Shown piece by piece: positions 1 to 15,899 of a DNA stretch of 16,446 nucleotides. The position numbers and the translations under genes were made by a program. Within the stretch, counting starts at the first letter, position 1. Each line of letters begins with the position of its first letter. This stretch comes from a virus (lineage: Duplodnaviria; Heunggongvirae; Uroviricota; Caudoviricetes). The notes beneath the pieces were generated by a model. It made no database searches, had not been told where the DNA came from, and was given only the letters and a program-made list of their open reading frames with translations. The stretch lies in the IMG/VR virus record IMGVR_UViG_2636415673_000002; one strand, 5' to 3'.

Positions 1-792
1 ATGCCATTAAATGGAGTCAGTGCTGCGATGCGCGAACGGGTATCGCAGCAGTTAAAAGAAATAGAATGTCGCTATGGCGTGAAAGTGCTGTACGCCTGCG
101 AATCAGGCAGCCGCGGCTGGGGATTTGCCTCGCCCGATAGCGACTACGATGTACGGTTTTTGTATGTCCATCCGCTGGAATGGTATCTGCGTGTAGAGTC
201 ACCGCGCGATGTTATCGAACTGCCTATCGACGACGAGTTAGATGTTTCCGGTTGGGAGTGGCGTAAGGCGCTGGGATTATTGAAAGGCGCGAATCCGACG
301 CTAATAGAATGGCTGGATTCTCCGGTGGTCTATCAACAAGATGAAGAAACGATAACGGCGCTTAAGGCAATGGTGCCAATGTGGTTTTCTTCGTTGCGTG
401 CACGCTGGCATTACTATTCGATGGCGCAGAAAAACTTCCGCGGCTATTTGCAGGGCGATGAAGTTCGACTGAAAAAATACTTTTACGTGCTGCGTCCGCT
501 GCTGGCCGTGCGCTGGGTCGAAGCGGGTAAAGGTGTGCCGCCAATGCGCTTTGCCGAGTTACTGGCGGGAAGCGAGCTTGATGCACCGTTACGTGCAGAA
601 ATAGACGAACTGCTGGAACGTAAACAGCGCGCGGGAGAAGCGGAATATGGTCCGCGCCGTCCTTTGTTACATGCGTTTATTCGCGCGGAGCTGGCGCGTG
701 GGGAAATTCCGCCGATTTTACCGGACAGTCGAGATGGAGATGTTCGGGAGCTAGATAATTTGCTGTATCAAACGGTAATGCGCCGGGCATAA
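1..792 (+). CDS. Pol-beta superfamily nucleotidyltransferase domain protein, function unknown
   Basis: 263-aa ORF with an N-terminal minimal NTase motif (ESGSRGWGFASPDSDYDV, i.e. GS-x9-DxD) followed by a helical C-terminal region. Convergent with the tail cluster and followed by a hairpin terminator. Family-level call only, from the motif. Confidence 0.6.
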   Translation: MPLNGVSAAMRERVSQQLKEIECRYGVKVLYACESGSRGWGFASPDSDYDVRFLYVHPLEWYLRVESPRDVIELPIDDELDVSGWEWRKALGLLKGANPTLIEWLDSPVVYQQDEETITALKAMVPMWFSSLRARWHYYSMAQKNFRGYLQGDEVRLKKYFYVLRPLLAVRWVEAGKGVPPMRFAELLAGSELDAPLRAEIDELLERKQRAGEAEYGPRRPLLHAFIRAELARGEIPPILPDSRDGDVRELDNLLYQTVMRRA

Positions 793-801
793 AGCCCGGC
801 G
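781..801. terminator. Bidirectional intrinsic-terminator-like hairpin between convergent genes
   Basis: Perfect 8-bp GC-rich inverted repeat cgccgggc / gcccggcg (781-788 and 794-801) with loop ataaa. The NTase stop codon (790-792) lies in the loop. On the + strand it is followed by a T-rich run (tgatttatt). It sits in the 13-bp gap between the two convergent ORFs. Confidence 0.5.
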
Positions 802-805
802 TGAT

Positions 806-1261
806 TTATTGCTGGTATTGCCAACTGCTGACTAAAGCGTACAAGTGGTTTGGAGAATAGCGCCAGCTTTCCTTCAGTTGCAGAAATTCAGCACAAAATT
901 CACTGCAAAACAGGCGATCGCGCTGTTCTTTATTACCGGTAATAATTCCTAATGCTCCGCGCCAGTCATATTTTTTGCCATCATGTTTACGGAAAAAAGT
1001 TTCCACATCCTGAAGGCTGGCCTGGAGCGGCAGCATATCCCACTTATCCGCTGGCAATGGCATTATTTTTCCGCGTACACCGCGATCGCGCAGTGATGCG
1101 GAGTAACAAAGGTAACTCTTTTCACCATGCTTAATGGCTAATTCACAGTGGGAATAATGACCACGTGTGATTTTACGGGTAAGCCAGTCAGCCAGTCGGG
1201 CAATACCACGGTGCTCTGTTCGGCCCTTATAACAAGCGAGCCAGACAGTGGTTTTACTCAT
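806..1261 (-). CDS. YiiX/YaeF-like permuted papain-fold (NlpC/P60 superfamily, Peptidase_C92-like) hypothetical protein
   Basis: 151-aa ORF whose ATG overlaps the stop of the upstream tail-fiber-assembly-like gene (ATGA at 1258-1261), so it is the last gene of the tail operon. Contains a His-before-Cys arrangement (GHYSHCEL near residue 33, then LFCSEFCAEF near residue 118) that resembles the HS-YSH and YCSE motifs of E. coli YiiX as I recall them. No signal peptide. Assignment is by motif memory only. Confidence 0.4.
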   Translation of the reverse strand: MSKTTVWLACYKGRTEHRGIARLADWLTRKITRGHYSHCELAIKHGEKSYLCYSASLRDRGVRGKIMPLPADKWDMLPLQASLQDVETFFRKHDGKKYDWRGALGIITGNKEQRDRLFCSEFCAEFLQLKESWRYSPNHLYALVSSWQYQQ

Positions 1262-1863
1262 GGTTGCCAGCCTGTTGAATAATCGTAGTCGAGCACCGCC
1301 TGAATATCGTCCAGTGCTTCCACCGCCGCGATATGGTGCTGGGCATTGGCGAACAGGCGCATATCGTGATCCATGGTGACCGATTCAAACTGGGCGGCGA
1401 TTTCGTTGGTTAACTCGATCAGACCGTTATTTTTAGTTTTCCACATTAAACCTGGAGGGATTTTTTTCTCCGCTCCCATTTTAGTGAGTGAAAGCTGTTG
1501 GATACGGCTATTTGTATCACTGTGGAAGTGATGGTTGTTGATGATGATGCAATCTACTGTTATTTCATCACGTCGATTTTTTATTTCCTGTGTAACCTGA
1601 GCCTTGGTATTCTCCAGTGCAACGGTAAATAACGTCTTGTTATACACCCATTTATCATCCTCTAAGATATAAAAGTTATCCGGAGGTGGCGTAGTGATAA
1701 TTTTGAATGGGTCAAGACATATCCAGCATGGTTTATCTTTTAACTGCCACTGCTCATCATCTACAGGAATTACTGAATCAGGTAATTCCACAGTAAAAGA
1801 GGCTGCATCTATCCAGTCAATAACCTCAAAGGTTACCGGATGGTAATACGCATATCGTGTCAT
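1258..1863 (-). CDS. Tail fiber assembly (Tfa-like chaperone) protein
   Basis: 201-aa ORF immediately downstream of the tail fiber gene with a 4-bp gap, the usual position of P2 G / lambda Tfa-type chaperones. GC content is clearly lower than the rest of the cluster (about 40 percent in sampled stretches). Call is mainly positional. Confidence 0.5.
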   Translation of the reverse strand: MTRYAYYHPVTFEVIDWIDAASFTVELPDSVIPVDDEQWQLKDKPCWICLDPFKIITTPPPDNFYILEDDKWVYNKTLFTVALENTKAQVTQEIKNRRDEITVDCIIINNHHFHSDTNSRIQQLSLTKMGAEKKIPPGLMWKTKNNGLIELTNEIAAQFESVTMDHDMRLFANAQHHIAAVEALDDIQAVLDYDYSTGWQP

Positions 1864-1867
1864 CTGT

Positions 1868-3637
1868 TCACCATAAAATTTTTATATAACCACCCAAGCC
1901 ACGACCGCCATTGCGGGCAACGTGGTTTACCCAAGTTGATCCTAAACCAGCCCCTCCCCCACCTCCCGCCCCATAACCAGAGCCGGATTGACCATCACTA
2001 TTCGCTCCTCCCAAGCCCCCTTTTCCATAAGGAGTATTTACTGCAGTTTCACCGTTGCTGGAGTATGTTTTGGGAACCTCTCCTACTGAGTTGGCGTGCG
2101 GGGAGTCGATAGTTATGATTTTACCTCCCCCCCCACCAGCACCGCCGGAAGCACTCTGTGAAGAAAAATGTGATGCTCCTCCTGGAATACCTGCTTGCCC
2201 CATTGCATCTTCGGGAATCCATCCCGGACCACGCTCTGGTATCACCTGTGTACCTCCAGCCCCTCCAGCCCCTCCGGACCCAACTGTAAAGGAATACATA
2301 TCTCCGGGTTTAACTGTGAGAGAGGCAATTATCAGTTCACCGGGTTTTCCTGCTCCGCCGCCTAGTCCAAATTTTGGATTCAGCATTGTCGAGCTTCCGG
2401 CGACTGCCCCACCTCCACCGCCCCCTCCGCCGCCTGACATTTCCAGAAGTATTTCTGTCACTCCAGCTGGCACGGTAAATGTTCCATTTGATGTATAGAA
2501 TCGGAATGAGGAATTGTTAATCCTGCTATATGCCTCACAGGCTTTATCATACGCCGCCTTCACCGCGCTCGGTGTCGCCGCCTCCGTCGTACTGTTGCTA
2601 TCCGTCGCGTTATTAAGCTTCACAATCCCTTTTTGCGACAGGGTGCCGTCTGGAACACCCGTAATCTGTCCCCATGGGTGAGTATGGTTTCCCGCAGCCT
2701 TACTATTCGCCAGGTCATATGCCGCCTTCACCGCGCTCGGTGTCGCCGCCTCCGTCGTACTGTTGCTATTGGTCGCGTTATTAAGTTTCACAATCCCTTT
2801 TTGTGTCAGGGTACCGTCAGGAATACTCGTAATCTGTCCCCAGGGGTGCGTATGACTACCCGCAGCCTTACTATTCGCCAGGTCATATGCCGCCTTCACC
2901 GCGCTCGGAGTCGCCGCCTCTGTAGTGCTGTTGCTATTGGTCGCGTTACTAAGCTTCACAATCCCTTTTTGCGTCAGTGTGCCATCTGGTATATCAGTAA
3001 TCTGACTCCAGGTATGACGATGATTTCGAGCCTCAATCAGTGCCGCTTTCACCGCTTTTGGCGTAGCCGCTTTGGTTTCGTCATCACTGTCAGTGGCGTT
3101 ACTCAACTGCGTAAAGCCTTTTTGTGTCAATGTAGCATCAGGGTGGTTAGTCGAATGTTCGTGTTCATCCAGTTGCGAATCGACGTAATCCCGTGTTGCC
3201 AGCACAATACTGGGATCAACGGTGAGTGTTACCGCAGTCGTGTTGGACACTTCCATAATGAGACGAATGCAAACTTGCTTACCGCAGCCGCCGGGTAATA
3301 GCGGTTTATACGACTCCGGGAATTTACCGATAGCAATGAGTTCACCATCGGTATCAAAAACGCCGACTTCACGTATATACCAGCCGCCGATATTTTCGGG
3401 CAGTACAAGTTCCGCAATTAACCAGCTAGGATTATTGGGCGCAACTGTTAATGTATTTAAATCACCGCGCCAGACCTCATGGCGTAATTTAGTTTGACTC
3501 GCCGTGGGTTCATAATATTGCCCACCGCCGTCTCCAACGGCCATCTTTTGCAGATGCAGTTGTTTTTTATCCGCAAGAGCACTGGCAATTTTTGCCATCC
3601 CTCTATTGGTCAGGAGGGTATAAAATTCATTATCCAT
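1868..3637 (-). CDS. Tail fiber protein (P2 gpH-like N-terminal domain, repeat shaft, glycine-rich C-terminal tip)
   Basis: 589 aa. The N-terminal roughly 160 aa carries P2 gpH hallmarks (MAVGDGGG, HEVWR, IAELVLP, ESYKP, ATRDYVD). Residues about 163-370 are 3 to 4 copies of a 56-aa repeat (TLTQKGIVKLSNATNS..TEAATPSAVKAAYDLANSKAAG.HTHPWGQIT), each with an HxH motif. Residues about 376-589 contain multiple polyglycine tracts. ATG at 3637. Confidence 0.85.
   Translation of the reverse strand: MDNEFYTLLTNRGMAKIASALADKKQLHLQKMAVGDGGGQYYEPTASQTKLRHEVWRGDLNTLTVAPNNPSWLIAELVLPENIGGWYIREVGVFDTDGELIAIGKFPESYKPLLPGGCGKQVCIRLIMEVSNTTAVTLTVDPSIVLATRDYVDSQLDEHEHSTNHPDATLTQKGFTQLSNATDSDDETKAATPKAVKAALIEARNHRHTWSQITDIPDGTLTQKGIVKLSNATNSNSTTEAATPSAVKAAYDLANSKAAGSHTHPWGQITSIPDGTLTQKGIVKLNNATNSNSTTEAATPSAVKAAYDLANSKAAGNHTHPWGQITGVPDGTLSQKGIVKLNNATDSNSTTEAATPSAVKAAYDKACEAYSRINNSSFRFYTSNGTFTVPAGVTEILLEMSGGGGGGGGGAVAGSSTMLNPKFGLGGGAGKPGELIIASLTVKPGDMYSFTVGSGGAGGAGGTQVIPERGPGWIPEDAMGQAGIPGGASHFSSQSASGGAGGGGGKIITIDSPHANSVGEVPKTYSSNGETAVNTPYGKGGLGGANSDGQSGSGYGAGGGGGAGLGSTWVNHVARNGGRGLGGYIKILW
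2528..3151 (-). repeat. Tandem 168-bp (56-codon) repeats inside the tail fiber shaft
   Basis: Near-identical DNA copies begin at 2553, 2721 and 2889 (period 168 bp), with a diverged copy near 3042. They encode the phage tail-fiber repeat with HxH motifs. Confidence 0.8.
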
Positions 3638-3639
3638 AA

Positions 3640-4272
3640 TTACTCCGGGTAAATAGATGTAATTTCAAGGCTCCATTGCCCTGTTCCGTAATAGATTGAT
3701 GTGTTTTGCTGTACTTCCCGTATCTGGAAAGGTAAAACCGACGTCAGTTCACCACCATAAAGTGCACAACCAATAACAGGAATAGCACTTTGGTTAATGA
3801 TCCAGACAATTAATGCTTCCAGTTTTGAACGTGTGTTTTTATATTCATGAATGAGTTCTACCAGATTATTGAAAAGGTTTTCATCCATGCCTTTATCCAC
3901 CAGCTCTATATCAACCTTAAAAAAATAAGCCTTCCCCCCATATTCAAACCATTCTGAAATAGTTCCTGGTAATGAGAGTATTTCCAGCACCCGCCGTACC
4001 GCCCAAATCGTTCCTTTATATTTATGCAGCTCAATGGCTTGCTTAATTAGCTCGCGCTTCTCCCGTTCATCGGTGGTAAATAACCAACCTTCCAGCCCCT
4101 GAACGTGAAATTGTTCTGCAAGGGCTGGTAATGCCGAAGCATCAACCAGGTCGACCAGATAAACCATCAACGCCGTAAGATCGAGTTGGGCAAAACGCTC
4201 GGCGGCGATATTTGCCAGAATCGAAAAACGCTCATCGCTGGCAAGCGGCGGCGGTGGCAGCAATTTATCCAT
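3640..4272 (-). CDS. Baseplate/tail protein I (P2 gpI-like)
   Basis: 210-aa ORF between the J-like gene and the fiber gene. Start overlaps the J stop by 8 nt, and the fiber ATG follows its stop with a 2-nt gap. Size and position match P2 gpI. Confidence 0.75.
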   Translation of the reverse strand: MDKLLPPPPLASDERFSILANIAAERFAQLDLTALMVYLVDLVDASALPALAEQFHVQGLEGWLFTTDEREKRELIKQAIELHKYKGTIWAVRRVLEILSLPGTISEWFEYGGKAYFFKVDIELVDKGMDENLFNNLVELIHEYKNTRSKLEALIVWIINQSAIPVIGCALYGGELTSVLPFQIREVQQNTSIYYGTGQWSLEITSIYPE

Positions 4273-5380
4273 CGCTAACTCCGGCGATCGTTACGTCTAT
4301 TGCAGTGCATTCCGCCCATTCATGCGCCTGCAAAATACGTTTTGTAGGCAAGTTCAGCACAACGTCATAGACGCCATCGACCTGTAACACTTTGATTATC
4401 TGGTTTGGCACAATGTCCTGCCCCAGATGTTTCTGCCGCTGTTGCGTCCAGAGGCTAATCGCTTTACGCGCCGCAGCCAGAGTTGTCTCCTGATCGGCGG
4501 TGGTAAACAGCGTTAGCTGCGCACGGATCTCATACGGCACTCGAAGAGCGCATTTCGCACTCACTTTGTCGGTCAGCGGACGTTTTTTCTCCTTGCTAAC
4601 CTCCTGTTCGATTTGCGCGAGCAGTTCTATTCCCGGCAGTCCGTTCAGGGTTAGCGGGTAGATCTCCACGCAGCCTTCTGGCAATCCCTCGTCCGGCCCC
4701 AGTACTGCAACGTCAATAATCGACTGGCTTACGGAAAGCGTATGAAAGCGGTAGGCACCATAGCTGCCCGCATTACTAAAGCTTTCTGGTGCCAGTTGGA
4801 TACGCTGGCGCAATGCGTCATCGCTCTCTTCACCGCAGCCGCCCGTTGACGCAGTCAGGTTGATTACGTTGATGTCATAATGACCAATCCTGTCGACCAG
4901 AGCGCTAATTTGTGCAGGCTGCCAGCCGTTACCCTGTTCACCTGCTGCGAGGCTGGTGGCAGGAACGGCGATATGCAAACTCCTGGCCGGGAGCAGAACA
5001 TCTTCATCGGTGGCGAACATCACGCTATCAGAGGCACTGGCCCGCGTCCCCTGGGGAATCAGGATATTGCTGGTATACGCACTGACAACCGAAAACTGCA
5101 ACGTCGTTTTTGCTGACTGCGCAGGCAAACGATGAACGCCCACCAGCTCCCCTAAATAATCCAGCATTGGCGCGCGGGAATACGCGACCAGGTTCTGTTT
5201 CGCCGCTTCCTGAATGGCGATGCGTACAAGGTTTTCACGATAGGCAAAAAGGTCAATCAGCAACCGCTCGGCCTGTGCCGGGTAGAGCTTTTTGCCGCTG
5301 GCATCTTCGTATTGCGCAATCATCTCGCTGGTAATTTGCGCAGGATCGCGTTCAATAAAATTGGGTTCGGCTATCGCCAT
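4265..5380 (-). CDS. Baseplate J-like protein (P2 gpJ / T4 gp6-like wedge)
   Basis: 371-aa ORF with a GGAGG Shine-Dalgarno upstream of the ATG at 5380. Positioned between the W-like and I-like genes as in P2. Confidence 0.8.
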   Translation of the reverse strand: MAIAEPNFIERDPAQITSEMIAQYEDASGKKLYPAQAERLLIDLFAYRENLVRIAIQEAAKQNLVAYSRAPMLDYLGELVGVHRLPAQSAKTTLQFSVVSAYTSNILIPQGTRASASDSVMFATDEDVLLPARSLHIAVPATSLAAGEQGNGWQPAQISALVDRIGHYDINVINLTASTGGCGEESDDALRQRIQLAPESFSNAGSYGAYRFHTLSVSQSIIDVAVLGPDEGLPEGCVEIYPLTLNGLPGIELLAQIEQEVSKEKKRPLTDKVSAKCALRVPYEIRAQLTLFTTADQETTLAAARKAISLWTQQRQKHLGQDIVPNQIIKVLQVDGVYDVVLNLPTKRILQAHEWAECTAIDVTIAGVSDG

Positions 5381-5730
5381 AACACCTCCGTTGAGTTGAT
5401 TACGCCGTCAGCGGCGCGCCATTGCACACGTAACGTCAGATGTTCACCGTCGATTACAGGTGTCACCTTCAGCAACCGGCAGCGCGGTTCCCACTGGCGG
5501 ATGGCCTCTACCGACTCCCGTACCACATGCGGGATCGCCCGCTCGATGGGATAATCGATGTAGTGCCACAAATTGCTGCCAAACAGCGGTCTGTGGGGAT
5601 CACTGCCGCGCGGTGTACGCAGAATGATGTGTATTGCCTGGTGAATATCATCCAGTCCGCAGACGTATTCTTCAGGCCGCTGCAAGGCCGGTTGCCAGTG
5701 CAGCGTTGAGGGGCGTGTTTTTGTGTTCAT
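5371..5730 (-). CDS. Baseplate protein W (GPW/gp25-like)
   Basis: 119-aa ORF containing a gpW/gp25-type motif (IHIILRTPRGSDPHRPLFGSNL). Lies immediately upstream of the J-like gene with a 10-nt overlap. The RBS is weak. Confidence 0.75.
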   Translation of the reverse strand: MNTKTRPSTLHWQPALQRPEEYVCGLDDIHQAIHIILRTPRGSDPHRPLFGSNLWHYIDYPIERAIPHVVRESVEAIRQWEPRCRLLKVTPVIDGEHLTLRVQWRAADGVINSTEVLWR

Positions 5731-5789
5731 GAGGGTATTTTCGCCCTGACCGGGCTGTGGAGATATTAAAGCGATTTAGAAAACTGATT

Positions 5790-5825
5790 GATTAAAAAGA
5801 GAAAACCCGCTATCAGGCGGGTTAA
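5790..5825 (-). terminator. Intrinsic terminator-like hairpin between the spike (V) and W genes
   Basis: Minus-strand RNA reads AACCCGC-CUGAUA-GCGGGUU followed by UUCUCUUUUUAAUC. The 7-bp GC-rich stem (plus 5804-5810 and 5817-5823) starts 5 nt after the V stop codon. Confidence 0.5.
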
Positions 5826-5828
5826 AAG

Positions 5829-6530
5829 TCAGTGTGAATGGTGGTTGGAGTTGCCACCGCTGTCCTGCAATGCGCCGCTGGCCTGAACGTTGCCGATCAC
5901 GTTGACATTGCCGGTTATCGTGGCGGCGTTACCGATGCCTCCACTTCCTGCCATCCCACCAAGCCAGGTGAGTTTTTTCATCACCGTGACGTTGCCGGTA
6001 AAGGTACTGAGCGGTGCGTCTACCGTTACAGCCATCGCTTTAACATCGACCTTACTGGCTTCAATGCTGACGTCGGTGGCTTTCACATCAACAGTGTCGG
6101 AAGTCACGGTGACGTGTTGGGCTTTAACCTCAACGTTGGGCGATATCAGGCTGGTACGGTCGATAACCTCAATCACGATTTTTTCGATACCACCGTTAAT
6201 CGTAAGCTGGTGGGTGCTGCGGTCATATTCAAACGCTGCGCCATCGGAAAACTGGACATAGCGTTTGTCGCGCGATGCTACTGGCGCGGTATCTACCGTT
6301 GAATATACTGCGCCCAGCACCACGCCATCTTCACCGTTATCATCCAGCAGAACCTCCACCTGCTCTCCCATGTCCGGTAGCCAGTAGTCTTTATTGTCCT
6401 GGGAATTGCGTTGAAGTACCGCAAGCCAGTTGCTCTTCAGATTGTCACACTCTGGAAGCGTGACTCGCACCCGAACGCTGGTTTCGTCAATATCGCTGAT
6501 AATCCCCGTTTGCCGGGTTACTCCTTTCAT
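5829..6530 (-). CDS. Baseplate spike protein (P2 gpV-like)
   Basis: 233-aa ORF with a strong AGGAGG RBS. N-terminal OB-fold-like region followed by a repetitive beta-helix-like segment (VxVxA repeats, e.g. VDVKATDVSIEASKVDVKAMAVTVDA) and a His-rich C-terminus (NHHSH), consistent with metal-binding spike apexes described for P2 gpV. Confidence 0.8.
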   Translation of the reverse strand: MKGVTRQTGIISDIDETSVRVRVTLPECDNLKSNWLAVLQRNSQDNKDYWLPDMGEQVEVLLDDNGEDGVVLGAVYSTVDTAPVASRDKRYVQFSDGAAFEYDRSTHQLTINGGIEKIVIEVIDRTSLISPNVEVKAQHVTVTSDTVDVKATDVSIEASKVDVKAMAVTVDAPLSTFTGNVTVMKKLTWLGGMAGSGGIGNAATITGNVNVIGNVQASGALQDSGGNSNHHSH

Positions 6531-6539
6531 ATTTCCTCC

Positions 6540-7580
6540 TTACTGGCTGGTCGCTGGCCCGCGTGACACGTCGATTTCAGTGGTATAGCCGCTGCGCACA
6601 AAACTGTGAGTAGATTTATCAATCAGCCACTGACCGGAAAGCACGCCAAAATCGGTCAGTTCAATTTTATTGCCCGCCGTCAGTTCCGGGCAGCCCATCA
6701 TTGTGAGCGTTCCGGTTTGCTGATATTCGTTGTGGCTGTCGAGTGCAGCGTTGGCCTTTGCCTGTGCTGCGCCAATGTCCGTCGCCCGACTGTTCAGTTT
6801 TAGCGTGTCGGCACTGGTGCCGACTCCACGGGCAGACGGTTTTTGCTGGCTGTCGTGGGTGTAGATAACCAGTTCTTTTTTCTTACTATTTTGATGCTGT
6901 ACGGTGGCGTTTTTGTAGATACGGTTAATGGTATCTTTGAAGGTGAAATGCGAAACGTCTTTGCGGTCGATCGTTTTTACCGGTGCCAGGCAGCGCAGCG
7001 TGGGTAAATGTGAAAAAATCAGCTCTTTTGTCGTCACTTTTACGGCATAACCATATTCACTGGCCAGACGTTTGAGAAATCCAACATCGGTTTCACCATA
7101 CTGCGTTACCCGGTCGATGGTGAGCGGCTCGATTTTGCCCACCAGTTTCAGACCGTGCGTTTGCGCGATACGGCTGGCGATAGCCGAAAGCGTCGTCTCT
7201 TCAAAGCCCTGGCTGTTACGCGTGCGTAGCGCCTGATTGACGGAAGTGGCGATGCCATCAATATTTACCGTAGAAGGTGGCGATGAAATATCAATTTTAT
7301 CAATAATATACTGACCACAATCGAGCAGCTTTTCCCCCTGATAACCCATATGCAGCGCCAGCGTATCGCCTTTGCCGGGATACCACTCTTTTATCCAGCG
7401 TCCATCGGTGTCATCCAGTGTAATCGCGATGGTATCCGACTCGTTTTTAATACTGTCCTGGTAACTGATGCTGGTGACATAAGGCGTGATGTCATAAGTG
7501 ATATCTTTATGCCCATACCAGAGGGTAAAAATGGGCGTGAGTGTTGCAAAGACGCCGCCAGTTACGCTTATCTCAGCCAT
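6540..7580 (-). CDS. Tail hub protein (P2 gpD-like, late control gene D family)
   Basis: 346-aa ORF immediately upstream of the spike gene. Size and position match P2 gpD. Confidence 0.75.
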   Translation of the reverse strand: MAEISVTGGVFATLTPIFTLWYGHKDITYDITPYVTSISYQDSIKNESDTIAITLDDTDGRWIKEWYPGKGDTLALHMGYQGEKLLDCGQYIIDKIDISSPPSTVNIDGIATSVNQALRTRNSQGFEETTLSAIASRIAQTHGLKLVGKIEPLTIDRVTQYGETDVGFLKRLASEYGYAVKVTTKELIFSHLPTLRCLAPVKTIDRKDVSHFTFKDTINRIYKNATVQHQNSKKKELVIYTHDSQQKPSARGVGTSADTLKLNSRATDIGAAQAKANAALDSHNEYQQTGTLTMMGCPELTAGNKIELTDFGVLSGQWLIDKSTHSFVRSGYTTEIDVSRGPATSQ

Positions 7581-7777
7581 GGTGGGATCTCCGATAAGGT
7601 TTTATTGACGGAAATGACCGGAATGATGAGCTGAATACCGGAAGGCAGTACCGGATAAATGGCGACATGTGGATTGGCTGCGATAATGCGTTCATAAGCC
7701 AGTGCATCGCCGTAGTAATGCCAGGCCAGGTTATCCCAGCGTTCGCCATCGGTGGTGATATGTTCAAGGTATCGCAT
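7568..7777 (-). CDS. Tail protein X (P2 gpX-like, LysM-like)
   Basis: 69-aa ORF with the gpX-like pattern (W-x-YYG ... AANP ... VLPSG..L.IP). Start overlaps the gpU-like stop, and its 3' end overlaps the D-like start. Confidence 0.7.
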   Translation of the reverse strand: MRYLEHITTDGERWDNLAWHYYGDALAYERIIAANPHVAIYPVLPSGIQLIIPVISVNKTLSEIPPWLR

Positions 7778-8730
7778 TACCAGCTCCTCGTAATGGTCGC
7801 GGCAGCAAGCTGGCTCACTGCGGGAGTGGTTTGTTGTACCGTTGTTCGTGCCTGATCAACCAACGTTGCGGCTTTATCAAACGTCGCTTCGGCGATGTTG
7901 CTGGCAATGTCGTCGAAAAGTGTCTGAGCATGGTCAACCAGCGTACTGGCGTCATTGGCGCAGTCCCGTATACCTGGCATGTTACCCAGTAAAGCTTTAA
8001 TCTGAGCCGACAACGCTTTTGGGAGTCCTGCCAGCATTTGCAGATCCATTGGCTGTTTAAACAGGGTTTCGATGGCGTCGATAGTCTTTTTCAACGACGT
8101 AATTATCTTTTCACACTTTTCTTTTAACGCTTTGGCCTCTTTAATCAGTGCTTTCACTTTTGCCACTGTTTTTTTAATATCTTCAATGGTTTGCGCCAGT
8201 TCATCGAGCATCTCTTTGGCTTTGCGCATACCTTCTTCAATGGCGTTCAATATCTGATACAACCAGGACTCCACCTTATTCGGAAAATCGCTCGCCTTTT
8301 CCTCGATATTAGGCTCCTGGGTGGTAATTGCCGGGGGCAGCAGTGGGTTTTTCGGATCGCCGGTATACTCCTGGAGCGACATTGTTCCGCTTTGGGCAAT
8401 GACATTGCCCCAGGGATCGGTGTGCTGGTGAGTGGCGGTTAACTCTGTAATTACAAACCAGCCGCGATAATCTCCGTTGCCAAACACCAGCGCCATTGCT
8501 TTGTGAGCAAGCATGGCTTCACGCAGTCGATTCAGCTCTGTTGTGGGTTGGCAAAACTGGCTGTGCAGGGAAAATTCCAGCGCCAGCATATCCAGCTTAT
8601 CGCCAATAAACTGCACGCCGGGTTTGCCTTCTATACGGGCATGTGTGGCGTAATCCACGCCCATTGTGCTTTTAAAGCCGTCCCAGAATGTGACAACTTT
8701 AAATTCAATCTCTCCTAAAACGGCATACAT
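7777..8730 (-). CDS. gpU-like tail protein with long C-terminal coiled-coil extension
   Basis: 317 aa. The N-terminal roughly 130 aa resemble P2 gpU-type tail proteins. The C-terminal roughly 180 aa are Lys/Glu/Ala-rich heptad-like sequence (KAKEMLDELAQTIEDIKKTVAKVKALIKEAKALKEKCEKI), predicted coiled coil. ATGA overlap with the tape measure stop. Confidence 0.55.
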   Translation of the reverse strand: MYAVLGEIEFKVVTFWDGFKSTMGVDYATHARIEGKPGVQFIGDKLDMLALEFSLHSQFCQPTTELNRLREAMLAHKAMALVFGNGDYRGWFVITELTATHQHTDPWGNVIAQSGTMSLQEYTGDPKNPLLPPAITTQEPNIEEKASDFPNKVESWLYQILNAIEEGMRKAKEMLDELAQTIEDIKKTVAKVKALIKEAKALKEKCEKIITSLKKTIDAIETLFKQPMDLQMLAGLPKALSAQIKALLGNMPGIRDCANDASTLVDHAQTLFDDIASNIAEATFDKAATLVDQARTTVQQTTPAVSQLAAATITRSW

Positions 8731-11081
8731 CAGGCATACCCCCGGCGCTGCTGCTGCGCCATTACATCGTTAATCATTCTTTCCAGTTCGCGTTTACTCA
8801 TCGTCAACACGTTCTGAATCTCTTTAGTGGTGTTTTGTCCGTTACCCTGCACGGTAATTTGTGGCGAAAAATTCACCTGGACTTTTCCCGGGGAACGGGA
8901 GGGTAGCGTCGCCGGTTTGGTTACGGATTTACCAGGTAAAGAGGCCGACGCGGGTTTTGCCGATGACGGCGTAGCCGTTTTGCCGGATGGCGCGAGTTGT
9001 TTGCCCACCGGCAGCGTTAAAATCGCACCGGCAACGCCTGGAACAACGGTCGCGGGGGAGACTGATGCGGTATTAGCCGTGCCTGTAACAGCCGCAGCCG
9101 ATGCTTCTGTGCTGATACCCATTGTGGCTTTTAGCCAGTCTGGCATGGCGTTTTTGACCTGATCAATAATGCCTTTCAGTGCGGGGAAAGCATTCATTAT
9201 GCCGTCGGCCAGGCTACCCAGTATATTGCTGCCGAACTCGCTAAAACTCGCAGGCATCTCAACACCAAACCAATTCATCACATCGGAAAAGGCGCTATAG
9301 AACAACTCCAGCGGTGACCAGTCGAGAATCAACCGACAAATTCCTGCAATGCCGCCGTCAAAGGCCGTGGTGATACGTTGCCAGATGGTCGAAAAGAACC
9401 TGGAGATAGGTTCCCAGTTGCGATAAATCAGATAAGCCGCGCCCGCAATCGCAGTGATGACCAGACCAATGGGATTCATCAATAACACCCGGCCTAGCGA
9501 GAGAACGGTTCGACCAAACAGTTTCAATGCTCCGATCAGGCCACGACCAAGCAGTTGCGTTAGCCATTTTGCGCCGCCACCCAATGACTTAACCGCCGAT
9601 AGCACTTTACTTGCCGCGCCGCCGAGGGCCAGACTTGCCCTGACTTTCAGGAAGATATCGACCAGACGAATAAACGGCGAGGCGATGAGGTTCGCGCCCA
9701 GCTTTAAAACATTAAGCGCACCGTTAAACAGCCAAATCGCCCCGACGATTTTCGCAATGTTTTGCACCAGCGCCGGATGTTCGCGTAGCCAGGCACTGAA
9801 CTGGCGAATAACCGGCGCAAGGCTTTGTGCCAGCTCGCCAATCGCCGGCATAAGCTGCAAGCCAATGCTGAGCCATAAATCATTTAACGCCAGTTGTAAC
9901 GCTTTAGTCTGTTCAATGGGCGAGGCCATTTGCGCAGAAAAGTCAGCGTTAATCAGATTCTTGCTGGTAGTTTGCATGGCAGAGGCTTTTAACTGGCGAT
10001 ATTCCTCCATATTCGCCAGCATAGGTGCCAGGAATTCCACCGTTTGCGCATCGCCGAACATTTCGCCCAGATTAAATTGCGCCACCATCGATTGCAGCGC
10101 AGTGCTGCGAGCAGATAAATCTTCAATCTGCATAGTGCGTTTGAAGGTGTCGAGGATCGCCGGATTCATCTTCTCAAGCTGCATTTGCACGATATGAGTC
10201 ATGGCTTCGCTAACACTCATACCGTTTTGCTGATGTTCAAGCAGAGAGCCTTGCAAATCGACGCCCTGGCTGGCGAACCAGCTATCGGTTTTTTTCGAAA
10301 AGGTGGTTTGCAGAAAGTGGTCAAAATTCTCAGCCGCCGCACTGGCGCTGGCCCCGTTTTTCATGGCGATCTGCATGGCGGCAGTCAGTTCAGTCATACC
10401 TTCCAGACCCTGAGCGCCGGTTTTACCTGCAAATTTGTCTATCCACTGCGTTTGCTCGGCAACGGCAGGCCCACCGCTTTTGCTAATGCCGTACATCATG
10501 TTTTGCGCGGCGTGGAAATTTTCTGGCGCAATATTCAGTCGATCATGGGTTGCGAGCGCGGCATTCGCCCATGTTTCAGCACTTTCGCGCGTGGCGGTGG
10601 CAGCTTTGGCGATCTCCGGCATATAACGGTTGAGATCCTGTATCGACGACAAATTGCCTTCGATCAGCGTTTGGGCTGCGTTCTGTAAGGTGGTCTGATG
10701 CTGGTTAAAATCCATGCTCCAGTCGCGCAGATTAAGGCTGAGCGTCTCGCGGGTTGTATCATTCATCCCACCTTTGGTCGCCATATTGACCATGTTGTCC
10801 TGGAACTCATACGGCAACTTCCAATCGGGGGCTTCAACATTGAATACTTTGCTAAATTGCCCGGCAAATGTGTGGGTTTTCTCCATCAGATTAGCGCGGC
10901 TGCGGCTATTTTCCTCCAGGCGGAGAGCAGAATCGGCAAGTTGCTGCGTTAGTTTGATTACTGTCGCTTGCTGAGAAGAGAGAGCTAACAAAGTTCTGGC
11001 GTTGAGTGAGCCGTAACGGGCTATTGCCTGCGTCAACGTCTCATTACGCGCCTGAAGCTGGGTAATAATATCGTTGGCCAA
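8730..11081 (-). CDS. Tail tape measure protein
   Basis: 783-aa ORF, Ala/Gln/Leu-rich and alpha-helical, with hydrophobic glycine-rich segments in the C-terminal half. Located between the chaperone and gpU-like genes. The first start-type codon after the upstream in-frame stop is TTG at 11081, so the exact start is uncertain. Confidence 0.8.
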   Translation of the reverse strand: MANDIITQLQARNETLTQAIARYGSLNARTLLALSSQQATVIKLTQQLADSALRLEENSRSRANLMEKTHTFAGQFSKVFNVEAPDWKLPYEFQDNMVNMATKGGMNDTTRETLSLNLRDWSMDFNQHQTTLQNAAQTLIEGNLSSIQDLNRYMPEIAKAATATRESAETWANAALATHDRLNIAPENFHAAQNMMYGISKSGGPAVAEQTQWIDKFAGKTGAQGLEGMTELTAAMQIAMKNGASASAAAENFDHFLQTTFSKKTDSWFASQGVDLQGSLLEHQQNGMSVSEAMTHIVQMQLEKMNPAILDTFKRTMQIEDLSARSTALQSMVAQFNLGEMFGDAQTVEFLAPMLANMEEYRQLKASAMQTTSKNLINADFSAQMASPIEQTKALQLALNDLWLSIGLQLMPAIGELAQSLAPVIRQFSAWLREHPALVQNIAKIVGAIWLFNGALNVLKLGANLIASPFIRLVDIFLKVRASLALGGAASKVLSAVKSLGGGAKWLTQLLGRGLIGALKLFGRTVLSLGRVLLMNPIGLVITAIAGAAYLIYRNWEPISRFFSTIWQRITTAFDGGIAGICRLILDWSPLELFYSAFSDVMNWFGVEMPASFSEFGSNILGSLADGIMNAFPALKGIIDQVKNAMPDWLKATMGISTEASAAAVTGTANTASVSPATVVPGVAGAILTLPVGKQLAPSGKTATPSSAKPASASLPGKSVTKPATLPSRSPGKVQVNFSPQITVQGNGQNTTKEIQNVLTMSKRELERMINDVMAQQQRRGYA

Positions 11082-11169
11082 AATTGTTTCTCTTATAGAT
11101 TGGTGATGGCCCGCTGGTTAGTTTTCTGAAAAATGGGCTGGGAAGAAATAAACCTGGCGGGCTTTAAAG

Positions 11170-11196
11170 GACTCGCAGACATCAGGTCTGCGAGTC
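11170..11196 (-). other. Perfect 11-bp stem-loop in the chaperone/tape-measure intergenic region
   Basis: gactcgcagac-atcag-gtctgcgagtc. On the minus RNA it is followed by CUUUAAAG, which is only weakly U-rich. Candidate attenuator, RNA stability element or frameshift-associated structure. Confidence 0.45.
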
Positions 11197-11269
11197 ATAT
11201 TCGATCTTTATTTGAGCGCTGGCTTCATCCAGCCAGTTGCTAAAGTCATCGACGGTAAGGGCGTCTATC

Positions 11270-11587
11270 TCACTGGGCGGAAAGCGAAACCATCTCGCCA
11301 GTAACGCCATTGCCTGCCATAGCAGGGGAGGATTCTGTAACCACGGTAAGCATGGATTGAAATCGTTTCTGCAATGCCTGGTAATCCAGCAAATCCATTT
11401 CAGCTAAATCTTCTGGCACCAGTCCGGTCATTGCCGCCATTAGCGGTTCATCCCACTCTTCTGGCTTTTCGCTGATCCGGCGCGCGTTGCGCATATCTTT
11501 TACTTTCAGGCGACGTAATTGCAGAGTGTTAATTACGTCTCCCGCCGCTGAAGTAAACGGGAACTGTAAGATATAATGCTCTTTCAT
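11270..11587 (-). CDS. Tail assembly chaperone (P2 gpE-like)
   Basis: 105-aa acidic ORF between the tube and tape measure genes, the canonical position of the E/E-prime (G/GT) chaperone. AAGGA RBS 7 nt upstream of the ATG. Confidence 0.6.
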   Translation of the reverse strand: MKEHYILQFPFTSAAGDVINTLQLRRLKVKDMRNARRISEKPEEWDEPLMAAMTGLVPEDLAEMDLLDYQALQKRFQSMLTVVTESSPAMAGNGVTGEMVSLSAQ

Positions 11588-11613
11588 TTTGTATCCTTAT
11601 TTATTTTGCGAAG

Positions 11614-11633
11614 TTCGGGGCCGTAGCCCCGAA
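11614..11633 (-). other. Stem-loop between tube and chaperone genes
   Basis: ttcggggc-cgta-gccccgaa (8-bp stem) directly after the tube stop codon. No U-tract follows on the minus RNA, so it is not a classical terminator. Possible RNA processing or stability element. Confidence 0.35.
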
Positions 11634-11637
11634 TAAC

Positions 11638-12162
11638 TTAGCCACCGATGTTATTGCGATAGGTACTTAATTGATCCACGCCGTTAACCCGAAAAATATT
11701 CGCCATATAATCAAGTTCAAGCAGCGTTTCACCATCGACCACTTGTTTAATATAAGTGCAACCAAAGGCGCTGCTGAATTCCGGGTTTTCATTTTGTTTA
11801 AATGTTCCCAGTGGATTCTTTTTAAACATGACAGTCAAATGAGTGACTAACGCTAATTGATTCGCTTTCCCCTGGGAGTTATAGCAATCAATACTGGAGC
11901 GGCACTGTAATGCTACCGCCTGCCACGGGTTTGCCGTTTTACGCATGACGTCCTGATAAAAGGAGTTCCATTTAATTTCCCCTTCCAGTTTATCGAACCC
12001 TGCCGGGAGTTCGATTTTGCCGACCATGCCCAGTGCTTTATGCTCCTGCATAATTAAACTGACATCCGGCAATTTAATTTCGGTTGCACGACCTAAAAGG
12101 TTATTACCATCGAGATAAATATTTGCGTTGGTAATACGGTTAATTTGAATTTTTCCAGCCAT
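11638..12162 (-). CDS. Tail tube protein (P2 FII-like)
   Basis: 174 aa. The C-terminus (ELDYMANIFRVNGVDQLSTYRNNIGG) matches the conserved VNGVD...R.NIG end of P2 FII tube proteins. TAATG overlap with the sheath stop. Confidence 0.85.
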   Translation of the reverse strand: MAGKIQINRITNANIYLDGNNLLGRATEIKLPDVSLIMQEHKALGMVGKIELPAGFDKLEGEIKWNSFYQDVMRKTANPWQAVALQCRSSIDCYNSQGKANQLALVTHLTVMFKKNPLGTFKQNENPEFSSAFGCTYIKQVVDGETLLELDYMANIFRVNGVDQLSTYRNNIGG

Positions 12163-13583
12163 TAGCTATTGCTCTCCAGAGAGACTAAATATTCAGAAGT
12201 AATTTCAGTTTCAAACGTCAGACGTTCCAGCGGCGGCGGCGGGGTGAATTTATAGCTAAGCAATAAATGCCCAGCGCTGAGTTCAGTCGGTGAATTTCGC
12301 GCCGGATCGTACCAGCACTCAAAGCCAAGCAGTGCGCCGTCGGCAATCAGCTTACGGCCCCAGGTATTTACTGATTCGGTCAGGGCATCAATCAGCGCCT
12401 GATTAATCGGCATATCAATATACTGCTGACTGAAATAACGGATTGACTCATTAATTACATCGCCTGTCCGGCGGACGTTTTCAAAGTTACGCATATGGGT
12501 CACGGTAGGCCATGCCGCTGTGCGGTTGCCCCACAAGCGCAGACCAGAGCCGTAACTATTGAAAATAGTGGTAATGCCGTTTTCGTTGAGCTGATTCACT
12601 TCGCTTTGAGGATCATCAATCATTGCGGAAAGCGAACGTTCAATACCGGTAATACCCTGAATTTCCTGGTTTGAGTTGCTCCACCAGAAACCTTTTTCGA
12701 GGTCTACTTTGGCACGTAGCCCGGCAGCGCGCGAAGAGAGCGGTTCGAGAACTTCCTGGTTAGTGATGCCATCGTAAACTTTGACGTGTGGGTAACATAA
12801 ACGCGCACGATCAGAGCTGGTATTGAAGTTGATAGCGCCTTGCGAACTGCGTCCTGCCAATACCTGCTGGAATGTCGTCCCAATCGGGGCATCAATGTAG
12901 GTAATCGCACCGAGTTTTTCCGCTTGTGCAATCAGCTCGGTAGTTACTGATTTTTGCGTACAGAACACGGGAGCAAGCAGGATTTTGGCGTAGAAACCAT
13001 ACAGGTTATAGGTGTCCTGAAGGAGTTTCATCCCTGTGCGGTCGCCTGCGGTATTTACGGCACCGATAATATCGGCTGCGGTGACCTTTGTAGGATCAAC
13101 ATAGGTATACGTCGCGTAAACCTTCGCCCCTGCCGGGATTTCAGTTCCGGTACGGGTTATAACGCCATCTGCGGCATTAACATTGTAAGATGTATTTTTG
13201 TACGTAGTGGAACTGGTACCTGGTCTTAATATTACTGAACTTACTCCCGGATGAGCTAATTTAGCTTTATCGGCACTATTGAACGTAATGGTTTCATTGG
13301 CAACATGCAGTCCATGTTTTACCGGATCCAGCACATTAATTACCACCACCGTACCGGCACCGTGGTCATAAATCGCCTTCAGCGCCTGTGGGATCGTAAA
13401 GTTAGCCTGAGTTGAGCCAAACTGCGCAGCATCGCTTTCAGAAAGGCATAATGTTGGTTTATTTACCGGACCACAGGGGGCCGTACCGATTAAAGCGATG
13501 ACGGCGGATTTTACCGCTTTAACGGGACGCTGGCCGGTTTCAATTTCAATGGTTTCTACACCGTGCAGATAATTAGCTGCCAT
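12162..13583 (-). CDS. Contractile tail sheath protein (P2 FI-like)
   Basis: About 473 aa with sheath hallmarks (N-terminal YLHGVET, GLRAKVD.EKG, LWGNRT, C-terminal YKFTPPPPLERLT). The track ORF begins at a TTG at 13589. The ATG at 13583 with an upstream GGAGAGGA RBS is the more likely start. Confidence 0.85.
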   Translation of the reverse strand: MAANYLHGVETIEIETGQRPVKAVKSAVIALIGTAPCGPVNKPTLCLSESDAAQFGSTQANFTIPQALKAIYDHGAGTVVVINVLDPVKHGLHVANETITFNSADKAKLAHPGVSSVILRPGTSSTTYKNTSYNVNAADGVITRTGTEIPAGAKVYATYTYVDPTKVTAADIIGAVNTAGDRTGMKLLQDTYNLYGFYAKILLAPVFCTQKSVTTELIAQAEKLGAITYIDAPIGTTFQQVLAGRSSQGAINFNTSSDRARLCYPHVKVYDGITNQEVLEPLSSRAAGLRAKVDLEKGFWWSNSNQEIQGITGIERSLSAMIDDPQSEVNQLNENGITTIFNSYGSGLRLWGNRTAAWPTVTHMRNFENVRRTGDVINESIRYFSQQYIDMPINQALIDALTESVNTWGRKLIADGALLGFECWYDPARNSPTELSAGHLLLSYKFTPPPPLERLTFETEITSEYLVSLESNS

Positions 13584-13770
13584 GTACAATTTCCTCTCCG
13601 TTATTTTGTTCTTCCTGAGTGATGACAGAAGTCAGGTGATTGCGGGCAATCATGGTCATGACCCACTCGTTGTCTTCTGGCAGATCAATTTCACTGTTCG
13701 GCCACAATAAGATTTCTTGTCCGTCGGCAAGGGTGACGCCGCTTGCCGGGCCGTTGTAGATGTATTTCAT
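13573..13770 (-). CDS. Small hypothetical protein of the tail module
   Basis: 65-aa ORF with a GAGGAAA RBS. ATGA overlap with the upstream gene, and its 3' end overlaps the sheath start. No recognizable motif. Confidence 0.4.
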   Translation of the reverse strand: MKYIYNGPASGVTLADGQEILLWPNSEIDLPEDNEWVMTMIARNHLTSVITQEEQNNGEEIVHGS

Positions 13771-14222
13771 TCAGTTTCCTCGTAATTAACTTCCGTAAGT
13801 AGGGGAAGATCCGTGTTTTCCTGTTCAGCGATAAACAGCGAGCTGGTCGCCATTTCCAGGATGTAGCGGCAGAAACCGCCGCTCTCACCCGTATTAATTT
13901 CTTTTTCAAGCCAAAGAAGACGATCGCAATCAGGAAGCTGAAGGCCACCCAATGCGCTGCGTATGCGGTCCAGTGCGTTTAACGCATCACAATTTTTGCC
14001 AACAATAACGGTGGCGGTTAAGCGGAGCGTTTGCTGTTGCACGAGAGCATCACTGCTTTCAGGCATGGCAAATAGAGAACCGCTATAATTAATAATCACT
14101 GTAACTTGCTGCGTCTGCGGAATATATTTATGGGTATCAACCGATGAAATAGATACATCCATTTCGGGATTCTGTTCACGTAATCTGGTCACAACAGAAT
14201 TCATTACTGATAAAATTTCCAT
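13767..14222 (-). CDS. Putative tail completion / terminator-like protein
   Basis: 151-aa ORF with an AAGGAA RBS, immediately upstream of the sheath gene, where tail completion proteins of P2 gpR/gpS size are commonly encoded. Call is from position and size only. Confidence 0.4.
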   Translation of the reverse strand: MEILSVMNSVVTRLREQNPEMDVSISSVDTHKYIPQTQQVTVIINYSGSLFAMPESSDALVQQQTLRLTATVIVGKNCDALNALDRIRSALGGLQLPDCDRLLWLEKEINTGESGGFCRYILEMATSSLFIAEQENTDLPLLTEVNYEETE

Positions 14223-14339
14223 ATAGGGTGTTCCTTAATTATCGCTGATTCGTTAACGCTCACTTCGTTATCGTTGAAATGTATTCTGACGTAATGAAGG
14301 TGGAGAATCTTTTAATCTGCTTTAGAGAAAAAATTGAAT

Positions 14340-14654
14340 TTAATAGCTACCGCGTTGTAATAGCTCTATTTTGCTATATAAGGCATCCAGCTTTGCTTCT
14401 AATACTGCCTGGCCACGAAGATAATCTTCTCTGCGGACATAATGCAGCGGAAGCTCGGCACGAAATTCGAGAAATTCTCTTTCCAGTTTCGACCAACTTG
14501 TTTCTGATTCCCGGCGCGCGTTTTCCAGAGATTCAAAACGCTCATTAAGTCTTTTTTCAATTTGCGCTAACAGCAATTTTCCGGCAGCAAACATTAATCC
14601 AACGAAGGAAAGCATAAGGGAGATCACTTCCCAAAAATCGATACTGAGTTTCAT
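14340..14654 (-). CDS. Membrane-anchored coiled-coil protein, possible i-spanin (Rz-like)
   Basis: 104 aa with an N-terminal TM helix (FWEVISLMLSFVGLMFAAGKLLL) followed by a charged coiled-coil-like region. Directly downstream of the endolysin gene, with a GAGGGG RBS. Confidence 0.45.
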   Translation of the reverse strand: MKLSIDFWEVISLMLSFVGLMFAAGKLLLAQIEKRLNERFESLENARRESETSWSKLEREFLEFRAELPLHYVRREDYLRGQAVLEAKLDALYSKIELLQRGSY

Positions 14655-14666
14655 CGGCCCCTCTGA

Positions 14667-15272: not shown

Positions 15273-15274
15273 CA

Positions 15275-15562
15275 CTATAGCCCTAAGGCGACGGAAAGAC
15301 AGACGGCGGCAACGATGATGGCGCGGCGAATCATTGCCGCCGCGCAGCAACGCGGTTCCTTCCATGGGCTAAAAGAGTCAGGCCGTGCCCATGGGAACAA
15401 ACTGCGATCGAGCCAGTATCCCAGCACCGCGGAAAGCGAAACCAGGCTTAGTTTATAAATGACGACCGGGATCTGTGCTGAAGAGGTCCAGCCGATCACG
15501 ACAAACAGCGCGACGGAAGCGACCAGCCAACCGGAAAGCCGGGGAAGAGTGACTTTTTTCAT
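15275..15562 (-). CDS. Putative holin (small multi-TM membrane protein)
   Basis: 95 aa with 2-3 predicted TM segments. First gene of the operon with an AGGAG RBS 7 nt upstream of the ATG. Translationally coupled to the endolysin gene. Confidence 0.5.
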   Translation of the reverse strand: MKKVTLPRLSGWLVASVALFVVIGWTSSAQIPVVIYKLSLVSLSAVLGYWLDRSLFPWARPDSFSPWKEPRCCAAAMIRRAIIVAAVCLSVALGL

Positions 15563-15878: not shown

Positions 15879-15899
15879 TCGTGTAAAATGATACTCCTG

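Follow-up and report, generated by a model that had tools for sequence, protein, structure and literature searches.

The junction between the spike gene V and the baseplate wedge gene W of a phage-derived tail cluster carries a hairpin followed by a T-tract. We analyzed this junction in a 16,446-nt stretch of viral DNA (IMG/VR record IMGVR_UViG_2636415673_000002), which is called the window here; V and W lie on its minus strand. The favored explanation, to which we give a probability of about 0.65, is an intrinsic terminator that closes an upstream late transcription unit directly before a Mor/C-type promoter of W, as annotated in phage Mu. The hairpin is of a quality not expected by chance and is conserved among relatives. 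A promoter-like motif of defined geometry lies between it and W and is repeated elsewhere in the window, which also encodes an activator of the Mor/C family. The upstream transcript would end at the hairpin, an activator-dependent transcript would start at W, and the terminator would insulate the W promoter.

The V–W hairpin

The V gene (5829..6530, minus strand; PF04717) ends in a TGA codon at 5831..5829. W encodes a gp25-family baseplate wedge protein (5371..5730, minus strand; PF04965) and begins with an ATG at 5730, its one possible in-frame start. A preliminary description of this DNA had placed a terminator-like hairpin with a GC-rich 7-bp stem 5 nt past the V stop, and the sequence confirms both its coordinates and its form. 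The hairpin reads AACCCGC-CTGATA-GCGGGTT (5823..5804, minus strand), with arms at 5823..5817 and 5810..5804 and a 6-nt loop at 5816..5811. Five of the 7 bp in the window allele are G-C. The V stop precedes the hairpin by 5 nt (CTTTT), and 74 nt lie between the end of the stem and the W ATG. The T-tract TTCTCTTTTT follows (5803..5794, minus strand), reading TTTTCTCTTTTT when the last two stem bases are included, and UUUUCUCUUUUU forms a U-tract 3′ of the stem on the sense strand. The hairpin thus has the G+C-rich stem with a short loop, the 3′ U-tract and the position after a stop codon that are typical of intrinsic terminators. Read on the opposite strand, the stem leads into UUAAAAGUCAG with no U-tract, and terminator character is thus limited to the direction in which the tail genes are transcribed.

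A loose terminator pattern scan of the window was uninformative, giving 21 sites where 18.7 were expected and no enrichment over shuffles. It was therefore replaced by a strict scan, in which the stem had to be perfect and at least 7 bp long with 5 or more G-C pairs, the loop 3–8 nt, and 8 or more of the following 10 nt T. Over both strands of the window the V–W hairpin is the sole site, and Markov-simulated windows give 0.017 sites per window. A 43-nt segment with the window allele folds at −11.1 kcal/mol (z = −3.35), with 2 of 200 shuffles as stable. The commoner allele, described below, folds at −15.3 kcal/mol (z = −4.66), and none of 200 shuffles is as stable. The strict scan and these z-scores support the intrinsic-terminator character that had been proposed for the sense strand, and the conservation reported in the next section indicates constraint.

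Other identities for the element were considered. An Rfam scan of 5300..6300 at a permissive E-value returned only two sub-threshold chance hits (12–14 bits, E = 2.8–7.4). A search of the V–W spacer for open reading frames (ORFs) found no plausible one, only two 32-aa antisense TTG frames. A dispersed intergenic repeat, either a repetitive extragenic palindrome (REP) or bacterial interspersed mosaic element (BIME) or an enterobacterial repetitive intergenic consensus (ERIC), was ruled out by copy number; the hairpin occurs in one place per genome in 195 Escherichia coli genomes.

Conservation of the hairpin and its alleles

The comparison set comprised 80 loci from viral contigs, collected by a W-alignment scan, 18 genome loci and several E. 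coli alleles. Hairpin statistics were taken from the 16 distinct upstream sequences that have the hairpin, as mean pairwise identity over register-anchored segments. The core arms CCCGCC and GGCGGG are 100% and 98% identical, and the 12 nt 3′ of the right arm, which hold the T-tract, are 82% identical. The 12 nt 5′ of the arm reach 45% and the promoter spacer 48%. All 16 relatives have 7–9 T in the first 10 nt past the GGCGGG arm, and in all 16 the hairpin lies 75 ± 1 nt from the W ATG. Loops come in 8 kinds, 4 or 5 nt long. Loop-proximal and outer pairs vary (G-C, G-U or unpaired) while the core arms are fixed, and the 3′ codons of V vary among loci while the hairpin is kept. The sole arm deviation among the 16 sequences is the window's own allele. 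From this comparison of sequences, we take the stem-loop with its U-tract to be under selective constraint.

The window allele differs from most E. coli alleles at position 5811. This base is A in the window, in 6 complete E. coli genomes and in 3 viral contigs, and G in all other E. coli alleles read. G5811 closes an eighth pair, giving the more stable form with an 8-bp stem and a TGAT loop; A5811 removes the loop-closing C-G. Over the hairpin segment, 6 E. coli genomes are identical to the window and 189 differ at one or two positions. The window is therefore most likely a slightly weakened minority allele.

A promoter-like motif at the W start codon

A 63-nt promoter-like motif, P_W, begins 2 nt past the T-tract and ends on the first base of W (5792..5730, minus strand; −62..+1). 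When sequences are right-anchored at the W ATG, loci from E. coli and other Enterobacteriaceae to Pandoraea and Chromobacterium align without a gap, giving an alignment of 55 distinct sequences. The conserved block of P_W (5783..5761, minus strand; −53..−31) comprises a T/C-rich run and then a dyad, which reads TTAAAGC-GCTTTAA in the best copies. In the window it holds the dyad TAAATCGCTTTA after a T/C-rich run (5778..5767, minus strand; center −42.5). In 43 sequences the TAA-N6-TTA dyad has its center at −42.5, and 6 have it at −43.5; at some loci it is a perfect 14-bp palindrome, TTAAAGCGCTTTAA. A variable G+C-rich spacer separates this block from the −10 hexamer GAAAAT (5742..5737, minus strand; −12..−7), from which the predicted +1 is A5730 of the W ATG. 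A-46, T-39, C-32, A-11, A-8, T-7 and A+1 are invariant. The A-11/T-7 register, in which the A of the ATG lies 7 nt past T-7, is exact in 49 of 55 sequences and has one extra base in the remaining 6, the same 6 whose dyad is centered at −43.5. A-11 and T-7 are the most important positions of the sigma-70 −10 element. No TTGACA-like −35 hexamer is present at 17-bp spacing, and a sigma-70 scan did not call P_W. The alternative hexamer TTTAATATC was rejected as a sigma-70 −10 element, its sixth position being G in Chromobacterium and in the window's second motif copy (TAAAAG), as against the invariant A-11 and T-7 downstream.

A position weight matrix (PWM) was trained solely on the Pandoraea and Chromobacterium sequences and compared with 100 shuffles. 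This non-enteric matrix finds exactly two sites in the window, both intergenic and on the sense strand. These are P_W, at 12.0 bits, and a second late-promoter copy at 14338..14276 (minus strand), which is the top hit at 15.2 bits; the shuffle maximum is 8.4. The second copy begins right after the stop of the gene for a 104-aa membrane protein; the Gp37-family gene downstream of it has a normal leader and Shine-Dalgarno (SD) sequence. It is presumed to be the start of the transcript that the hairpin ends. Its core matches that of the head-protease copy in Klebsiella phage KP12 and Escherichia phage PhiKM, two BcepMu-like phages; the copy that fronts the head protease gene in phages has been kept and now stands directly 5′ of the Gp37-family gene. 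A third, weak match, at 15645..15583 upstream of the holin gene (−2.3 bits), was not counted because no −10 hexamer lies at the proper spacing.

KP12 and PhiKM have four motif copies each, on the sense strand and before operon-first genes: the lysis genes, the head protease gene, the tail chaperone gene E and W. An ATG at +1 is limited to the W copy, and the other copies lead into leaders with good SD sequences. PhiKM has a fifth copy (13.2 bits; L021 30810..30872, minus strand) upstream of a DNA adenine methylase (Dam) gene, which recalls the C-dependent Pmom of Mu driving a DNA-modification gene. The motif has the marks of a Mor/C-type promoter: a −10 element without a −35, a dyad near −43, several copies before late operons and an encoded Mor/C-family activator. 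The activator gene (16099..16446, plus strand; PF08765, 129.5 bits) specifies a protein 44% identical to a PhiKM protein annotated 'positive regulator of late transcription protein C'. This protein is presumed to activate both late promoters.

The W start codon is unusual within the cluster. W has no SD sequence, and its anti-SD pairing of −3.7 kcal/mol is the weakest among cluster genes not overlapped or abutted by an upstream neighbor; most genes lie between −6 and −12. The preliminary description had noted a weak ribosome-binding site and a possible need for an internal promoter, and the pairing energy together with a conserved promoter-like motif whose +1 falls on the ATG bears this out. 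With no SD sequence and a V–W gap of 98 nt, W is not translationally coupled to V. Since the promoter geometry puts +1 on the A of the ATG and no SD is present, the W mRNA is predicted to be leaderless. Lambda cI transcribed from PRM is an example of a leaderless mRNA. It resembles W in having a −10 hexamer that places the start on the A of the AUG, and no SD sequence. Known leaderless phage examples are mostly regulators rather than virion structural genes, whereas W is structural and its start is predicted from geometry alone.

G-rich and C-rich inverted repeats flank the −10 hexamer of P_W and end at the ATG (5732..5755, minus strand). In KP12-type phages they form a 7-bp stem, GGGGGCA-ATAC-TGCCCCC, of about −13 kcal/mol. 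The window version is AGGG/CCCT only and competes with GCCC-GGTCA-GGGC. Pairing is 60% versus 53.6% in shuffles and covariation is 0.216 versus 0.123, with 0 of 500 shuffles reaching either value, and registers slid by ±1 are nearly as good. If these repeats are an RNA element, they can only act as one on read-through transcripts.

The strength of the hairpin raises the question of whether it acts as a partial attenuator. A fixed fraction of read-through would then set the ratio of upstream to downstream tail proteins, and downstream expression would depend mainly on read-through. The moderate stem strength (−11 to −15 kcal/mol) fits this, and the interrupted U-tract UUUUCUCUUUUU could likewise allow incomplete termination. 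An internal terminator past the major capsid gene is also annotated in the Mu record. However, a conserved promoter lies 2 nt downstream of the T-tract, and read-through RNA would translate W poorly because W lacks an SD sequence. The split also fails to track stoichiometry. The preliminary description had suggested that the hairpin sets the ratio of sheath, tube, hub and spike to wedge and fiber products, but the upstream unit mixes high-copy components (sheath and tube) with low-copy ones (tape measure, U, X, D and V). We therefore set this ratio-setting role aside and consider attenuation unlikely.

Comparison with phage Mu and related systems

In phage Mu, four late promoters have −10 hexamers and no −35, and C binds a 16-bp imperfect dyad centered at −43.5, with −52 to −34 required (PMC2582627). 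Mor and C are tetramers that contact the C-terminal domain of the RNA polymerase alpha subunit (alpha-CTD), sigma region 4 and the beta flap. They occupy two adjacent major grooves upstream of −35 and bend the upstream DNA (preprint 10.1101/2025.05.02.651988). The Mu GenBank record annotates terminators, all TransTermHP predictions, directly upstream of Pm, Plys and PI. For Plys the terminator is at 10383-10406 and the promoter at 10403-10469; for PI they are at 17908-17953 and 17977-18043. Given these annotations, a terminator right before an activator-dependent promoter is the usual punctuation of Mu-type late regions.

The window shares with Mu a hairpin and T-tract just 5′ of a promoter that has a −10, no −35 and a dyad near −43, and that is, in the window, presumably activator-dependent. 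In both, the promoter is repeated before late operons and the same element encodes a Mor/C-family activator. The operators are different. P_W, of the TTAAAGC-GCTTTAA type, is unrelated to the Mu C boxes; set beside Mu Pm, Plys, PI, PP and Pmom it has the same layout but no operator sequence similarity to C or Mor boxes. This mismatch does not count against the mechanism, since it is expected for an activator related at ≤44%. Mu also has an internal tail promoter, PP, that lies inside gene N without a terminator, whereas the internal promoter of the window fronts W. Finally, the Mu late genes shown have annotated ribosome-binding sites, in contrast to the predicted leaderless W.

Mu-type activators bear on a second explanation of the conserved segment, in which the T-tract and the adjoining TAATCAA, possibly with the palindrome, are a DNA-level promoter element and not a terminator. 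The segment could be an IHF-type bend site, or a distal contact for a Mor/C tetramer or the alpha-CTD. The 13-nt sequence AATCAATCAGTTT (5793..5781, minus strand) contains TAATCAA, which is invariant in the hairpin-bearing clade (columns T43 A44 A45 T46 C47 A49). It matches 12 of 13 positions of the IHF core consensus WATCAANNNNTTR and has an A/T-rich tract upstream, making it a candidate IHF site. The fixed distance between hairpin and ATG in all 16 sequences is in line with such a role. Some Chromobacterium loci keep a similar stretch, T-rich and then TAATTCAAT, at the same distance. Mor/C tetramers are also known to bend upstream DNA and contact the alpha-CTD (preprint 10.1101/2025.05.02.651988). 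A DNA-level element leaves unexplained, however, why G+C arms are conserved while the loop is free in sequence and length (4–5 nt), which is typical of a hairpin and not of a protein-binding palindrome. KP12-type phages, moreover, retain the promoter although these positions are coding in them. As a replacement for termination we regard this explanation as quite improbable; a DNA-level role and termination are not mutually exclusive.

The closest relatives of the window are BcepMu-like phages (Bcepmuvirus; KP12 and PhiKM). They are collinear with it through sheath, tube, E, tape measure, U, X, D, V, W, J, I and H, have the same late-promoter motif, including the W copy with its ATG at +1, and encode a homologous Mor/C activator. 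They have four or five motif copies where the window has two, and the window has lost all of their head, terminase, transposase and replication genes. At the V–W junction the V stop of these phages lies within the motif, leaving a 54-nt gap and no hairpin, unlike the window. The chaperone-E promoter (P_E) of PhiKM has GGGGC-TCC-GCCCC-TTCTTCTT just upstream, so that a terminator-like element and a promoter are combined there as well. Phage P2 has the baseplate genes V, W, J, I and H and an activator-dependent late promoter inside its tail region. The P2 promoter PV precedes V (V-W-J-I-H-G), depends on the zinc-finger protein Ogr and carries a TGT-N12-ACA element. The P2 promoter thus lies before V and is Ogr-dependent, whereas that of the window lies before W and is of Mor/C type. 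No Ogr homolog was seen in the cluster annotation.

Distribution of the promoter and the hairpin

The promoter and the hairpin differ in their distribution. KP12, PhiKM, a second E. coli element (L025) and every phage contig of 22–47 kb have the V stop within the motif, at about −57..−55, and lack the hairpin. A V stop in this position leaves no space in which a terminator could fit. The hairpin module spans about 44 nt, from the V stop to −57, and is found only in relatives whose W is at least 92% identical to that of the window. Its carriers are E. coli, Superficieibacter and several viral contigs of 13–18 kb, a size consistent with tail-only clusters. Because phages have the same promoter in the same place without the hairpin, the promoter is the older of the two. 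Its range marks it as an ancient and general feature, with the hairpin module confined to one enterobacterial clade. The preliminary description had proposed that the hairpin marks the junction of two formerly separate operons. A junction of two transcription units is borne out, since the conserved promoter-like motif starts 2 nt past the T-tract, but a history as separate operons fits less well with an ancient promoter and a clade-restricted hairpin.

Between lineages, homology is lost at the V stop and picks up again precisely at the edge of the promoter, and varied sequences are found between these points. On this basis the V–W junction is a tolerated insertion site, a hot spot bounded by the promoter. 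Phytobacter has a REP-like element within the hairpin module, and Dryocola an ERIC-like element at the junction. In Salmonella, REP elements and the whole gtrABC O-antigen glucosylation operon lie between V and the W promoter. Pandoraea communis has an extra small ORF (MKTIRYRGYDIQPD...) at the same junction. The insert-bearing loci were read at L026 3786..4110, L027 about 2900..3062, L003 5825..6000, L004 5743..6000 and L008 5631..5979. REP-like and ERIC-like sequences at the junction occur only in genera other than that of E. coli.

These inserts could mean that the hairpin is itself a neutral scar, left by insertion or recombination (for example as the terminator of a lost moron) and now without function. 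The exact break in homology, the REP, ERIC, gtrABC and ORF inserts of relatives at the same spot and the roughly 44 nt that the module adds to the phage arrangement all fit such an origin. A functionless scar would not be expected to keep arms 98–100% identical, with a T-tract retained across several genera, against 45–48% at adjacent unconstrained positions. Nor is the hairpin a dispersed repeat, being single-copy in each genome. An insertion origin is compatible with present function, and we judge an entirely functionless hairpin very unlikely.

A model for late transcription of the tail cluster

In the favored model, the Mor-family activator would turn on two late promoters. An upstream late transcript of ~8.4 kb, starting at 14276, would carry the Gp37-family gene, sheath, tube, chaperone, tape measure, U, X, D and V, and would be released Rho-independently in the U-tract at about 5794-5800. 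P_W would start a new, leaderless W-J-I-fiber transcript at 5730. Lying ~65 bp upstream of this start, the terminator would stop elongating polymerases before they could dislodge the activator and polymerase at P_W. It would also prevent read-through RNAs whose internal W AUG, lacking an SD sequence, would be poorly translated.

Several results weigh against this model. Constraint on the stem is argued from conservation alone, with no compensatory covariation; no compensatory pair could be counted because the core arms never change. RNAalifold missed the stem in a MAFFT alignment of 12 hairpin regions, where the 4-nt-loop sequences are one column out of register. The A5811 of the window weakens its own stem, from −15.3 to −11.1 kcal/mol. 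The T-tract and invariant TAATCAA could act at the DNA level in the promoter, instead of or besides termination. Complete BcepMu-like phages and the second E. coli element have no terminator at the V–W junction, so the promoter can do without the hairpin. With a PWM made from six phage promoters other than those of W, P_W is the best sense-strand site, but its 11.3 bits fall inside the shuffle range (maximum 15.0). Finally, literature on Mu late-transcript terminators, STM42xx transcript data, E. coli tailocins and leaderless late genes yielded nothing bearing directly on the V–W junction, transcript ends included. The six-sequence PWM has one further match in the window, at 16.6 bits on the plus strand (917..979), antisense in the last tail gene. 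This score is slightly above the same shuffle maximum and is probably overfitting of a small matrix.

A broader reading combines these elements, and we offer it as a tentative possibility. In BcepMu-like phages and their tail-only descendants, among both beta- and gamma-proteobacteria, W would have a Mor/C-type promoter of its own and a leaderless mRNA. The terminator would have been added in one tail-only enterobacterial lineage, tailocin-like and apparently SOS-linked, where it would shield the promoter so that W, J, I and the fiber genes come only from transcripts with a 5′-terminal AUG. If true, the position of the transcription start would gate translation in a structural-gene operon, and this would be a regulatory change that went along with domestication of a transposable-phage tail.

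The hairpin by itself is an ordinary transcription-unit boundary, in a layout already known from phage Mu. The promoter and its predicted leaderless start are the more useful by-product of following it up. They provide a sequence-only late-promoter consensus for the widespread Mu/P2-hybrid (BcepMu-like) phages and the E. coli tail-only cluster, with exact coordinates for the terminator, operator, −10 hexamer and start site. These may be useful for inducing or engineering the tail particles as tailocins, and they bear on DNA recognition by the Mor/C family beyond phage Mu.

Locus and gene content

The window is 100% identical to the chromosome of E. coli A10 in the lysC-yjbD interval, and 197 of 5426 complete E. 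coli genomes carry the 16-kb cluster (about 3.6%). The gene order of the cluster begins with the Mor-family activator, which is divergent from the rest, followed by a holin, a lytic transglycosylase and a small membrane protein. A Gp37-family protein, sheath, tube, chaperone E, tape measure, U, X, D and V come next, and then W, J, I, the tail fiber and two further proteins. There are no capsid, terminase, integrase, transposase or replication genes in the cluster. It is collinear with the tail and lysis modules of KP12 and PhiKM, at 35–75% protein identity. Positions 806..16446 of the window correspond to a BcepMu-like prophage cut down to activator, lysis cassette and tail. The cluster looks like a domesticated, tailocin-like element; we found no paper describing it.

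A perfect, palindromic LexA/SOS box, TACTGTATGCACATACAGTA (15859..15878), lies between the divergent Mor-family and holin genes. This box overlaps a sigma-70-like promoter, TTTACA-16-TACAGT, on the minus strand (15887..15860). The perfect LexA box in this position suggests that the whole tail cluster is SOS-induced, like pyocins and colicins.

At the other end of the cluster, a nucleotidyltransferase-domain gene and a slipin-family gene are convergent to the tail genes, inside the lysC-yjbD insertion (window 1..792 and beyond; L001 25809..27733). A strong 8-bp hairpin, CGCCGGGC-TTTAT-GCCCGGCG (779..803), separates the last tail gene from the convergent nucleotidyltransferase gene. On the tail-gene strand no good U-tract follows it, which leaves the end of the W-to-fiber transcript less clearly marked than the V–W boundary. 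Finally, contig JAEZCC010000043.1, labeled 'MAG: Bacillota bacterium' (MAG, metagenome-assembled genome), encodes a W protein 100% identical to that of the window and has an E. coli-type spacer. Its W locus is most likely E. coli DNA mis-binned into the MAG.

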